A stretch of 64,000 nt of DNA from Eledone cirrhosa (taxonomy: Eukaryota): assembly GCA_964016885.1 (NCBI GenBank), contig OZ024742.1, positions 279,310,001 through 279,374,000 on the forward strand, written 5' to 3'. Each line of letters opens with the position of its first letter. Within the stretch, counting starts at the first letter, position 1. Position numbers and translations under genes: made by a program. Shown here one piece after another: positions 38,535-64,000 of the stretch. Below the pieces are notes generated by a model. That model saw nothing but the letters and a program-made list of their open reading frames with translations. It searched no databases and was not told the origin of the DNA.

Positions 38535-38580
38535 ATTATTATTATTATTATTATTATTATTATTATTATTATTATTATTG
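38535..38580. repeat. (TTA)n tail of R4-like copy B
   Basis: Direct read. Confidence 0.92.
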
Positions 38581-41500
38581 TTCTTTGAGTCTCAGTCATT
38601 GATGTTAGTTAACTGGAAAGTTTTTTGAAATTAATATCAAGCAACTACCTACAGCCTCAGATATCCAGGACGTATCGGAGGGTTCTTGCTGTTCCCAGCA
38701 AGCATGCCTTTTGAAGCGTTCCAAAAAGCGTGGCGGGGCCAATTTTCTTTAACCATCCCTGGAAACTTTTTGAGATAGTATCTAGTACGCCTATGACAAT
38801 CGGGACCACTTTGACTTCATGGCAGTTCCAAATCCTTTTTACCTCCCACTTTAAGTCCTGGTATCGGTTAATTTTCTCCCTCTCCTTCTCTTGCACTCTC
38901 GTGTCGAATGGGCAGGCCACCTCCACAATCAGGCACGATCTTTTTTCCTTGTCCAAAACCACCAGGTCAGATCTATTGTGTTCCAGTTTCTTGTCCGTCT
39001 GTATCCTAAAATCCCACAGCACCTTCACCTGATCGTTTTCTATCACCGACTCTGGCTTATGCTCATACCACTTCTCAGAATGTAGTAAATTGTTTACTTT
39101 GCATAGGTGCCAGTGGATCACCCGGCCCATAACATCATGTTTCCAGGCCTTATAGTGAATCTGTGCTAGGTGTTTACACTCGGATACAATGTGAGCCACA
39201 TTCTCCTCTCTCCACAGATCCTGCACAGTGGGCTATCCTCCTCCTTGTAAATATGGTGTTTCAACCACTTCGATTTGAGGGCCTGCTCTTGCGCAGCCAT
39301 TAGCATTCCTTCTGTAGCCTTTTTAAGGTCTCCTCTTTTCAACCAGTTCCATGTCTGTGGATCTCTGAATTCAGTTTTCTCAAAGAAGGTACTATGAAGT
39401 GATTTTACATGAAGGCTGCTCTTTCTCCTTGTTGTTATTTCCTCCTTGGACATCCCCTGGTCTATTGTCCTCTCCTTCAGGACAATTCTGTGCATTGGCT
39501 CCCTACTATCAGTCACGTATTTGTGTAGGTTGTTTTTCTCCATCTGAACACAGTCCTCTATGCTGATAAGACCTCTTCCACCTTCAGAGCTCCTTAAGTA
39601 GAATCTATTGACATCACTCCTCTTGTGGAACATGCTGTATATAGTCAATAGCTTCCTAGTCTTCCTATTCAGTGTCAACAAGCACATCCAACACCTTCTC
39701 ACTCGTACCGAAGAGCTTAAGATCGTCCATGAAGAGGAGGTGATTGATGGTAAGCTCTCCCTTTCCCAACTTGTATCCTGCTGTCACTTTTCGCAGTATA
39801 ATGGTCAGGGGCATCAGGACAAGGACAAACAACAGAGGGAACAGTCTATCTCCCTGGAAGATACCCCTCTTGATCTTCACGCCTCCGAAGGATTCTCCAG
39901 CTGATGTTAACTCTGTTTTCCAGGACTTCCTACTTTTGCCCAACAACTATCTGATGTTATCTGCCACCTTGAAGATCTCTAGGCTTTTGTTGATCCAAGA
40001 ATAAGCACCATATCAAATGCCTTTTTGTAGTCTATCCATCCCATGGCAAGACCAGTGTGTCTCCTCTTGCAATTCCTCATTACCATATTATCAATAGGTA
40101 ACTGGTCCTTTGTACCACGGGACTTCTTTCGGCATCCTTTCTGTTCGTCCGGTAACAAGTTGTTTGTGTGCAGGTGATGTTAGATTTCCTCAGACATAAT
40201 GCTTGTCAACAGTTTTCACATTACGGACAGACATGTAATAGGTCTATAGTTGGTAACATCATTACCCTTGATTCGGTCTTTCATTACCAGAACTATGGTA
40301 CCTTTTGTCAACCACTCTGGTACCTCACCTGACATCAAGCAGTCATTGAACATGGTTGTTAGTTTCGGGTGGAGGGATGTTATATTTTTCATCCAATACC
40401 CCTGCACACCATCTGGGCCTGGTGATTTCCATTGGTTAGTTTTTTGGCCTGCCCCTTAAGAGTTTCAACTGTGATACTCAAATCAGTTTGTTGGTGTGCC
40501 TGTTCACTAATCTCCTTTTGTACTGACTCAATCCACACTGCCTGGTCATTATGTTTAACATCCTGCTCCCATATTCCTCTCCAGAATGTCTTAGTTTGTT
40601 CCGCCTCAGGGATCAAGTCGTTGCCTCTTTCTTTCCCTTCAAGTTGTCCAAACAGCATCTTCTGATTGTTGTCAAACATGCGGTTCTGTCTATAGTGACT
40701 GACTCTGCTCTCATATCGCCTATTTTTTGCACTCTTTGCTACAATGCGTTGCTTCAGTTCCTCTATGATAATATTTAGCTTTTTCCTCCTTGTTTTGTAC
40801 TTTATTTCCAGTCTATTTTTGGTGTCTATGTTTTTTAGTGTCCCATTCAGTAGGGACTCAAGCTTTCCAATGTAATTTCTCATTTCCCTGATTTGATCAT
40901 TCAGTCGTTTCTCCCACCGAGGTTCTGATCTTTCTTGTTTGTTGTTTCCTCTCGCTTTTATGCCAAGTAATTTCCTCACCGCATATGCTGTTGCTTTGAG
41001 GATATTGTGGCACTGGTGAAGATTCCTCGCCTCAAGGTATGGGATGACTTTGTTTACCTTAGCTGTTGTTTCTTTTAACTTTTTCCTGTCTACAAATCTT
41101 AGCTTCATAGGTTTCCCACTATCATTGTTCAATTCATCTACCACTAAATTTAGGATATAAACCAAATCTTGTCCTAGCCCGTCAGCATTCATCTCCTCAA
41201 TGGCCGTATCTTTGTTCCAGGTATTATTTATTTCAGCATTCAGATCATTATCTGCTTCTGATGGTTCCTCCGTTCTCTCAACCTCTTCACCTTCATTTCC
41301 CACTGGCTCGTTTGCCTGGCATACTCCACTCTCCATTTCCAAGCTAATCTCTCTGCTCAGTTCCTCCAGTTCCCGCTCGCTTATCCACCCATTAGTTCTT
41401 ATTACCCGAGCCTGCCCGGCCAATTTTTGTTCATCTAATTTAAATAGACCAATCTCGTTCCAGATGTTATGCATCCGTTTCCTATAGCCTTTCTCCTTGG

Positions 41501-42642
41501 GGTTACTCTTCGGGTAACATTGCATAACAGTTCTATTCAATTCTTTCGTCCAGTTGGTTCTGGTCCCTTTCCTTCTTCTTCTTCCTCCGACACCAGCAGT
41601 ATTTGGTTGACAGCCAGGTCCCTGCTGCTGAGCCAGGGAGCACGTTCTGGGTGAGAGTCTGTCACTTGACATTCCAGTCACCACTTCGCCGTTATTCGAA
41701 CTGTTTAGGTTCGACATTTAAACACTCTTATCGAGGATTGGTGAACTTATGGTTACATAACCACCGGTGATTTCATCACCCCCGGTGATTTTAGTGCGGA
41801 ACTATCACGCTGTAGACGAACATAAATAAACAAACAAACAAATACGTAAAAAAAAAAAAAAGAATAAGCAGAAATTTCATTGTAATGTAATGTTTGAATG
41901 TCTGACATAGTTTTTTTTTCCTTCTCTGTCTGTCTGTTTGTTTTTCTTTTGATTTTTCTTTTCTTTACGTTTTTCGTTGTTGCTGTGCTGTTCTGAGTTT
42001 GATTTTTTTATTTTTTATTTTTTGACCGGGTCATCAAATCAGTCTATTTATATCTTTTGATGCCTTCCTCTTTTAGTGAGGACACTACGATGCATGTCTT
42101 AGCAGGAGGTAGTGGGAGAGAATAGAGGCGGTAGTGATAATGAGGCAGTGGTGGTGGTGGTGGTGCTGTGCTAGTAGTACTTTGCAGGAGGTTGTGGGCG
42201 AGAATAGCGGCAGTAGCGATAATGAGGCAGTGGTGTTGGTGATGTGATCGTAGTACTGTAGTGATGGTGTTGAAGTTGAAGGAGAAATAGAAATTGAGGT
42301 AACTTGACTAGAGTTTTTGGCGTGATAGTGGTGATGGAGGTGGTGGTGGTGTTGGTGGTGTTGGTGGTGACATTATTTGCCTGCCTGTCCACTTAGCTAT
42401 TTAGCTATTTAGCCATTTTGCCATTTTCCTCTTTTTCGACTATAACATTTCTGATCCAAAAGTAAATATTAAATATTGGGGCCCTATGCCGGAAAGTGAT
42501 GCGTTATGGCTTGCTGCGCATTAAAAATGTAATCTTAGACTTCATTTGTAATTAGAATTATTCTATCACGTTGTTTTAAATAAATAAAAATCAAAAATTT
42601 ACGTGAGCGATTCCACAACGATATATATCCACCATGTGAGTT
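38581..42642 (-). mobile_element. R4-like family 2 copy B, near full length, disrupted
   Basis: ORF pieces 40389-41717, 40216-40407, 39665-39946, 39166-39702 and 38657-39226. ~360-bp deletion at ~39670; divergent ~0.9-kb 5' region. Confidence 0.92.
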
Positions 42643-63300: not shown

Positions 63301-63785
63301 AGTGCTACCGAGGAGCCTTGCCAGTTCCAGATAAACTCTACAGGCATGGAGGTGCCATCAGCCGGGCATATTCCGAGATGCGCGCAGGGCGACGAACCGT
63401 CCTGCACACACTCGTCCAGTGTCCGAAAATTGCTGACTTGTGGTTTTATGTCGAACACCTGCTGTCACGTGTAGGACGGATCCGGCTATCATCTGAGTCC
63501 ATCGTGAGGATTTCCCCGCCCTCTTCCTTTGGCCGGGAAGGGCAGGCAGTTTTTATCTGTCTGGTGGCCATGGCGAAAGAGATAGTATGGTGGACGCGTT
63601 TGAAAGGGCTGAAGACGAGCACTTACCTCTTAGGTGATGCCCTGATTAACTTTTTAAAATTTCATTTGAAAAGGAAAATCAGAGTAGAGAGGGAAGTGCT
63701 CTCTTCCCAGCATTTTGTTCAAAGATGGGTGAGAGAAGCAAGAATGGCCCGAGTGAATGGGCCTACTCTGAGTATGTATCTGTAA
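60361..63785 (+). pseudogene. Tx1-like ORF2, copy 2, disrupted
   Basis: Same motifs as copy 1; catalytic YADD changed to YADN; several stops and frameshifts. Confidence 0.9.
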
Positions 63786-64000
63786 ATTAAAGATGAAAAA
63801 CTGGGAGAGGGCACTTGCCTTGGTGGTCAGGGTCACTGTGGCCTTTAATGGGCTTTCTCCACAAATGTCCCTCCGAGGTCTCCCGCCTATTGGGGAATTT
63901 TTCATTGCTATTTTTTTTGTTACATCCTCTGTTTTTGTTTTTTACACGCAGAAATGCCCATTTGTACCGTCCTGTATTGTCCTGCACTGTCCTTAATGTC

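Follow-up and report, generated by a model that had tools for sequence, protein, structure and literature searches.

Elements and spacers in the window

The present study concerns a cluster of retrotransposons in a 64,000-nucleotide stretch of the Eledone cirrhosa genome (assembly GCA_964016885.1, contig OZ024742.1, positions 279,310,001 to 279,374,000 of the forward strand), which is called the window here. The window lies mid-arm on a 378.9 Mb chromosome (279 of 379 Mb) in a genome of 3.0 Gb. From 38536 to about 64034 there are ~25.5 kb of nearly pure element sequence, in which two kinds of long interspersed nuclear element (LINE), one R4/Dong-like and one Tx1-like, stand in opposite directions in the same (TAA/TTA)n repeat. 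A sequence-only reading had placed nine such elements in the window and had proposed that R4 sense always goes with TAA and Tx1 sense with TTA. Self-comparison and direct reading confirmed the positions and the orientation of all nine. The count is now ten, as an old R4-type fragment (333-1511, plus strand) upstream of a (TAA)19 tract had been overlooked.

The array begins at its left edge with (TTA)14 (38536..38577; spacers are given on the plus strand), followed by three head-to-tail R4 units on the minus strand. Unit 1 (38580..42642), a full-length R4B1 copy with its 5' leader at about 42420-42642, is the oldest R4 of the array, its nearest copies being 95% identical. Unit 2 (42853..47434; leader about 47208-47434) is full-length and frameshifted, with nearest copies at 98.5%. 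Unit 3 (47462..52005; leader about 51780-52005) is full-length and keeps an open frame of 1141 amino acids (aa) at 47544-50969 with reverse transcriptase (RT), CCHC knuckle and RHD/PD..D..K motifs. A central head-to-head spacer, (TTA)28 (52006..52089), leads to three Tx1-like elements on the plus strand. The first is a 193-bp 3' fragment (52091..52283), whose tail has a TCA interruption in common with its nearest relative (L073). It is followed by (TTA)5 TCA (TTA)8 (52284..52325) and by a full-length Tx1-A copy with broken frames (52327..58185), which has its 5' untranslated region (UTR) at 52327-52537, then open reading frame (ORF) 1 with a CCHC knuckle, ORF2 with an apurinic endonuclease-like (APE) domain, RT and zf-RVT, and AATAAA 7 nt before its end; an intact relative exists (L253). 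After (TTA)6 (58186..58203) comes an older full-length Tx1 (58205..64000; nearest copies 94.5%), which runs ~34 bp past the end of the window, to ~64034, where it ends within a degenerate TTA tract (L093).

At a second locus (1512-8210) TAA is on the plus strand, R4 is plus and Tx1 is minus, so that both clades are flipped together with the repeat, as had been described. Here the old degenerate R4-type 3' fragment (333..1511, plus; 67-71% nucleotide identity to R4B in blocks 333-774 and 808-1391, RT and restriction-like endonuclease (RLE) frames broken) ends at (TAA)19 (1512..1568). Next is a young R4A copy (1569..5366, plus), 99.7% identical to other copies, with an open 1218-aa frame (RT, CCHC, RLE) and without the ~1.1 kb 5' leader; full-length R4A copies with the leader are found at L271, L279, L281 and L283. 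A TAA spacer with one TGA interruption (5367..5397) joins it tail-to-tail to a 5'-truncated Tx1 3' fragment (5398..5870, minus), and this in turn is joined to a 5'-truncated R4B-type copy of an older subfamily (5871..8196, plus), followed by (TAA)4 and (AGA)n.

The array had been described as having only short TTA-based spacers. An exception is the ~210 bp between units 1 and 2 (42643..42852), made of (TTC)n and (TTA)33, and at the second locus the Tx1/R4 junction at 5870/5871 has no spacer. In the spacer between units 1 and 2, the TTC part probably arose when the GGGAAGAAGA with which the R4 element begins, here the GAA start of unit 1, expanded, and GAA expansion at R4 5' ends is also present in L283, L296 and L298; the (TTA)9 spacer between units 2 and 3 (47435..47461) is of the short kind. 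It was also observed that spacerless head-to-head fusions of a 5'-truncated Tx1 with a 5'-truncated R4 occur at two other loci (L015:1684-1690 and L024:1500/1501). These could be deletions, or two different ribonucleoproteins may have primed at one break. The Tx1 truncation point is nearly identical in three copies (window 52091, L015 and L024; positions 5670-5673 of 5859) and lies beside a GC-rich hairpin-like sequence, a possible stall site of the RT.

The R4-type elements of the window form two families, R4A (1218 aa) and R4B (1141 aa), whose ORFs are 35% identical. Each has a single long ORF in which RVT_1 was found and no APE domain. The best PDB matches of both are R2 proteins (E 2e-30). 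Their C-termini carry a CCHC knuckle and motifs aligned to the R2 RLE, which we take to be the RHD...PD..D..K motifs of the restriction-like endonuclease. The Tx1-like element has an ORF1 with a CCHC knuckle and an ORF2 with APE, RT and zf-RVT (Exo_endo_phos 2e-8, zf-RVT 1e-8; intact copy L253). The single Tx1/L1-type name among its matches is an automatic one, 'Transposon TX1 149 kDa protein' (E 3e-82, 31%). The R4/Dong-like and Tx1-like assignments are thus putative, being based on architecture and target and not on a tree with curated references. Within Tx1, two unrelated 5' UTR/ORF1 types (A and B) stand on ORF2 sequences that are 93-96% identical (L246, L252, L263, L181), which amounts to 5' swapping within the clade.

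Other LINEs of this genome are associated with other microsatellites. A third full-length R4-type family (L161, minus; 32% to R4B) has (TACA)n at both ends and an unrelated leader. Tx1 relatives with 65-68% aa identity to Tx1-A have (TATC)n or (TC)n as flanks or tails (L191, L202; also L103, L114 and L152). The genome thus carries a panel of microsatellite-targeting LINEs. No TTA/TAA tract of at least 4 units was found at the 37 loci of metagenome relatives of the Tx1 ORF2, which are distant (mostly 21-38%).

Orientation and target preference across the genome

The orientation rule was examined at junctions where two elements meet across a TAA/TTA spacer; with window loci excluded and duplicates removed by junction sequence, 169 unique ones were counted. 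A separate junction tally excluded L027, L077 and L124, which are near-duplicate loci, as well as every locus overlapping the window. R4 and Tx1 were opposite at 57/57 junctions. R4 copies had the same direction as their R4 neighbours at 56/56 junctions, and Tx1 copies as their Tx1 neighbours at 18/18. The claim of a shared trinucleotide target used in strictly opposite orientation is therefore upheld. The bipolar design proposed for the array did not generalize, because the R4-Tx1 junctions comprise 22 tail-to-tail and 35 head-to-head cases and the window's own locus at 1512-8210 is interleaved. By chance, 2 of 20 possible orders of three and three elements would be fully segregated. The orientation rule is strict and genome-wide, and the bipolar layout is no rule. 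One candidate exception, L013, had appeared to be a same-direction R4-Tx1 pair; it proved to be the tail of a short interspersed nuclear element (SINE) matching a SINE-like piece inside an R4A leader.

For any element with a repeat at its end it has to be asked if the repeat is a target or a tail. The flanks were counted at the best genome-wide search matches, window loci excluded. TTA was found at the 5' end of 29/29 and at the 3' end of 28/29 Tx1 copies. R4B 5' ends were preceded by TAA in 28/29 cases, the remaining one having GAA, and R4A 3' ends were followed by TAA in 29/29. The repeat is thus on both ends, as the sequence-only reading had required of a target. TAA also stands directly before 47 of 64 apparent R4 5' truncation points, many of the others resembling internal deletions or fusions. 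The presence of the repeat at both ends and at most truncation points shows that the TAA/TTA tract serves as a target. In part it is a tail as well, as R4B tail haplotypes are common to several copies (TAA-CAA-TAA-CAA in 11/42 and TAA-CAA-CAA-CAA in 5/42, the R4B 3' ends being drawn from neighbours and from an unselected sample). In Tx1 a TCA interruption occurs in 3/50 tails, two of these in mutual nearest neighbours.

A third participant follows the Tx1 rule. It is a high-copy SINE of 181-213 bp, with 49 full copies in 0.99 Mb, whose transfer RNA (tRNA)-type head was judged by eye and has no Rfam match. It had the same direction as Tx1 at 21/21 junctions and the opposite direction to R4 at 5/5, and SINE-SINE pairs agreed at 11/12. 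Its 3' end is similar to those of Tx1 (shuffle p 0.003-0.009) and not to those of R4 (0.30-0.96). Target duplications of 8-19 bp were seen in 34/48 full copies with flanks; they start with (A)TTAT, and TTAT falls within the first 5 nt in 29/34. Under target-primed reverse transcription (TPRT), these starts would mean a primer 5'-AATAAT-3'OH on the A-rich strand, to which the RNA tail is complementary. A Tx1 copy at a non-repeat site (L009) has a ~15 bp duplication of the same kind. Three SINE copies with a Tx1-like tail lie within the window itself (13299-13478, minus; 20125-20339, minus; 38025-38201, plus). A comparable partnership is SINEU with Tx1-Mar, where a SINE is mobilised by Tx1 machinery with the same target preference and tandem insertions sandwich a target site duplication (PMC4494074). 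The SINE described here differs from it in its tRNA-type head, as judged by eye, and in its relaxed ATTAT target.

Some of the data weigh against this account or limit its reach. Anchors taken from the best matches are biased to young copies. At 5' ends of Tx1 that appear truly truncated, TTA was present at the junction in 12/19, absent in 5 and replaced by a fusion to R4 in 2 (judged by eye, with 21 internal deletions or alignment breaks excluded). The SINE duplications were called without a shuffled control, and the SINE-Tx1 partnership derives from a 20-nt likeness. The evidence for target duplication by the LINEs comes from the SINE and from the one Tx1 copy at L009 (~15 bp). Reads aligned to 260-8790 formed multi-copy pile-ups with no usable joint, and no empty allele was seen among them.

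It is quite probable that the array is a cluster of independent R4/Dong-like and Tx1-like insertions, which take opposite orientations in the same (TAA/TTA)n genome-wide, likely by priming on the strand complementary to their own repeat-ending RNA. Under TPRT, the TTA strand would serve as primer for R4 and the TAA strand for Tx1 and likely for its SINE passenger, and repeat would remain on both sides as a fresh target. Strand choice would come from the preference of the endonuclease, reinforced by pairing between RNA tail and primer. To judge by the SINE, each Tx1-type event would duplicate some 12-18 bp, or about 4-6 units, and in this way renew the target.

SART and TRAS of the R1 clade, both APE-encoding and telomeric, are a known pair of this kind. 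These two LINE families insert in opposite directions in one repeat, (TTAGG)n, and evidence exists there for a choice made by the endonuclease as well as for annealing of RNA to the primer (PMC7265360). The two families, the single repeat and the opposite orientation (57/57 here) are common to both systems. The difference is that SART and TRAS are both telomeric APE elements, whereas the microsatellite described here is dispersed and is used by one RLE clade and one APE clade.

The sequence-only reading held that the two endonuclease folds nick opposite strands of the repeat. In the strict form of this explanation the endonucleases would decide by themselves, with the RLE nicking the TTA strand, the APE the TAA strand and the RNA tails having no part in it. 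An endonuclease domain swap between SART and TRAS does swap specificity (PMC7265360), and intact copies here retain the full set of APE and RLE catalytic motifs. However, the tails are partly inherited through RNA, as seen from the CAA variants of R4B and the TCA in a nearest-neighbour pair, and the SINE duplications start with the SINE's own tail sequence, as primer annealing predicts. We therefore consider the purely enzymatic explanation rather doubtful. The same two observations could be taken further, to say that either strand of an AT-rich repeat can be cut by the endonucleases and that complementarity of the RNA tail alone sets the orientation. Pairing of the tail with a nicked primer strand can yield the same orientation pattern, and SART1 AGG and R1Bm annealing provide precedents (PMC7265360). 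Against this, SINEs with the same tail use short ATTAT sites (60/68 with at most 2 TTA units), whereas full-length Tx1 copies are in long tracts, thus something beyond a short tail match selects the sites of the LINEs. Pairing as the only determinant is in our view unlikely. The system is a natural pair of unrelated endonuclease folds on the simplest possible shared substrate, in which the roles of nuclease and RNA-primer pairing in setting strand and site in TPRT are testable with two swaps. Strand-specific TAA integrases could also serve as tools.

Growth, clustering and chromosome position

The array had been proposed to be self-extending. It was found that its members are nearer to copies elsewhere than to one another, which supports extension by independent insertions, one after another. 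The identity of unit 3 is 98.9% to copies elsewhere as against 96.4% to unit 2, and unit 1 is 89-92% identical to units 2 and 3. The Tx1-a element is 99% identical to copies elsewhere, as against 91% between the two full Tx1 copies of the array. Judged by these identities, the array members are insertions of different ages. Tandem duplication, unequal crossing-over or mis-assembly could also place similar units in head-to-tail runs. However, the units differ by 4-11%, belong to different subfamilies and have closer relatives on other chromosomes, and the same junction types recur at many unlinked loci. This explanation is largely refuted and hardly deserves any weight.

The outermost members are the oldest in both arms of the array, which is expected because most tracts eventually come to be internal to an array. 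Polar growth as a rule was rejected, since at other loci the older neighbour of a young copy can lie on either side and the excess of R4 neighbours at Tx1 5' over 3' ends (16/29 vs 9/29) is not significant (p 0.11).

The background frequency of tracts and elements was taken from an unselected sample of 99 10-kb stretches (0.99 Mb). It contains 31 tracts of at least 6 units, 4 R4B 3' ends, all of which adjoin a Tx1 tail (4/4), and 9 TTA-tailed Tx1-type 3' ends; Tx1-like matches make up 3.1% and R4B 0.5% of it. As long tracts are so few (31 of at least 6 units per Mb), insertions would pile up in mixed clusters without fixed polarity. An R4 neighbour was found at 25/58 Tx1 anchor ends as compared to 4/62 tract sides in the unselected sample (p 3e-6), and as compared to 4/34 when tracts of at least 10 units were taken (p 0.002). 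On the other side of the balance, part of this excess may come from selection or region instead of targeting. Copy number is at least about 400-1700 search candidates per query, and extrapolation from the sample gives the order of ten thousand. Dong-R4 and L1-Tx1 are abundant and recently active in octopod genomes (PMC13282606 Table 1; PMC8967140), and the repeat landscape here resembles these expansions. In the searched text of these two papers there is no mention of targets or co-insertion ('target' occurs 0 times in that of PMC13282606). The self-renewing target loop would account for part of the genome's microsatellite and LINE load.

A structural role and clustering near chromosome ends had also been suggested. 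The copies were found to be dispersed, with a spread along the chromosomes that gave p 0.07-0.81 in Kolmogorov-Smirnov tests, and depleted in the terminal 5% (6/156, p 0.007). In 20 terminal 10-kb stretches there was no R4 and one old Tx1, and four contained (TTAGGG)n. It was noted that 130/156 search matches fall on the four largest chromosomes (G000 C1-C4), which hold 54% of the genome; this may be real or a ranking bias. An array domesticated as a telomere-like, centromere-like or boundary structure and kept for the host would agree with 25.5 kb of nearly pure element sequence and has a precedent in SART/TRAS. It is, however, very improbable, as the window is mid-arm, the matches are dispersed and depleted at the ends, and most units of the array are frameshifted. 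The arrays are accumulations of selfish elements and not chromosome structures; nothing points to a host function, and the pattern is no evidence for a new chromosome structure.

Likeness between the 5' leaders of R4 and Tx1, a possible case of capture

The TAA-targeting R4 families start with a leader of ~1.1 kb, whose first ~210 nt align with the 5' UTRs of the TTA-targeting Tx1 families. The R4A and R4B leaders open identically and match at 76% of positions over 339 nt, as against 35% identity of their proteins. In all R4 and Tx1-A/B leaders there are 212-228 nt up to an A-run and ATGG, and they are colinear from the 5' end. In Tx1 this ATGG is the start of ORF1; in R4 it starts a broken stretch of low complexity. 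In local comparisons without the ATG anchor every TTA-targeting Tx1 leader found a counterpart in R4, the z values being 6.4 (Tx1A-R4B1), 6.9 (Tx1B-R4A) and 5.0 (Tx1D-R4B). The Tx1A-R4B1 score exceeded all AT-matched genomic controls (0/1500), and the likeness survives 2- to 4-let shuffles. Among 760 R4B1 x Tx1A leader pairs the median score was 52, while the reverse-complement maximum was 36. In relatives with other targets the likeness was absent: a (TATC)n-flanked Tx1 (L191) and the Tx1 of L160 gave z of at most 2.2 (local and global), and the (TACA)n-targeting R4 gave at most 1.6 against all.

Several results speak against common origin of the leaders. Their sequences are AT-rich and agree at no more than 51-56% of positions. 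The likeness lacks significance in several cross pairs, among them Tx1A-R4A (local z 0.6) and Tx1B-R4B1 (about 0). Neither blastn nor narrow nhmmer profiles gave a cross-clade match, and although Tx1-A leaders took the top 25 ranks with a 20-copy nhmmer profile, their E values were no better than 0.4-4. The low identity and the weak profile scores would fit convergence of AT-rich promoters. Convergence is a less probable explanation, since the leaders are colinear from the 5' end to the ATGG at 212-228, the likeness survives shuffles and AT-matched controls, and it is missing from the other-target relatives tested. On alignment evidence, the R4 and Tx1 leaders are probably homologous.

Whether the R4 leader was captured from Tx1 is a narrower question, on which the sequence comparison leaves the chances about equal. 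The R4A leader also holds a SINE/Tx1-type tail ahead of its R4-specific part, which fits capture of an inserted Tx1-mobilised element. Co-residence in the same tracts would let TAA-targeting R4 families gain a Tx1-type 5' UTR/promoter module. A wider proposal, to which we give neither more nor less credence than to its negation, is that co-targeting, by bringing the two deepest-split LINE lineages together in one microsatellite, drove exchange of modules between RLE and APE elements. With the Tx1 5' UTR/promoter, an ORF1 remnant and, in R4A, the SINE/Tx1-type tail, R4 would have replaced the ribozyme-and-read-through start of Dong. Such replacement would probably have happened repeatedly, and the tails of each clade would feed the targets of the other. 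If leader capture is true, promoters have been exchanged across the RLE/APE divide.

Dong targets TAA in silkworm, mosquito and snail (PMC3812793); TAA lies upstream of its sense strand and an HDV-like (hepatitis delta virus-like) ribozyme is at its 5' end (PMC3774820). Such a ribozyme has been shown for R4 as well. The R4 elements here are like Dong, DongAg and DongBg in being single-ORF RLE elements flanked by TAA on the sense strand. They appear to differ in their start, as the ~1.1 kb leader opening Tx1-like stands where Dong has the ribozyme. A search of R4 leaders for an HDV-like ribozyme gave no Rfam match, and a home-made descriptor, unchecked on a known ribozyme, found it in 0/5 leaders. 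In one R4B subfamily (L064, L066, L072, L073, L078, L079 and others) the leader segment 149-767 occurs twice, and a short tandem repeat lies where the two copies meet.

Tx1 families in microsatellites include Kibi in (TC)n, Koshi in (TTC)n and crocodilian families in (TTCC)n/(TTTC)n (PMC4494074; for Kibi and Koshi also PMC4640811). Like these, the elements described here are Tx1-type APE elements in microsatellites; unlike them, their target is (TTA)n and is shared with an RLE clade. No TTA-targeting Tx1 was found in the covered part of PMC4494074, while Repbase, Kojima and Fujiwara 2004 and the supplements of PMC4494074, outside the search, may list some. Penelope-like elements are also biased to microsatellites (PMC8557442). 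The literature search, with subscription papers and Repbase outside it, found no description of R4 and Tx1 (RLE and APE) elements paired on a single microsatellite, nor of leaders exchanged across the two types. Each ingredient is known, and the combination and the shared leader appear to be undescribed.

Two further kinds of repeat were observed. RTE-like elements (L149, L200, L217) end in (TGA)n tails and are a possible source of the TGA microsatellites of the window. The window also contains long inverted repeat pairs of 89-94% identity (15233-15964/16867-17607, 14940-15157/19220-19425 and 36710-36951/37257-37498), which are probably fold-back DNA transposons or miniature inverted-repeat transposable elements (MITEs).

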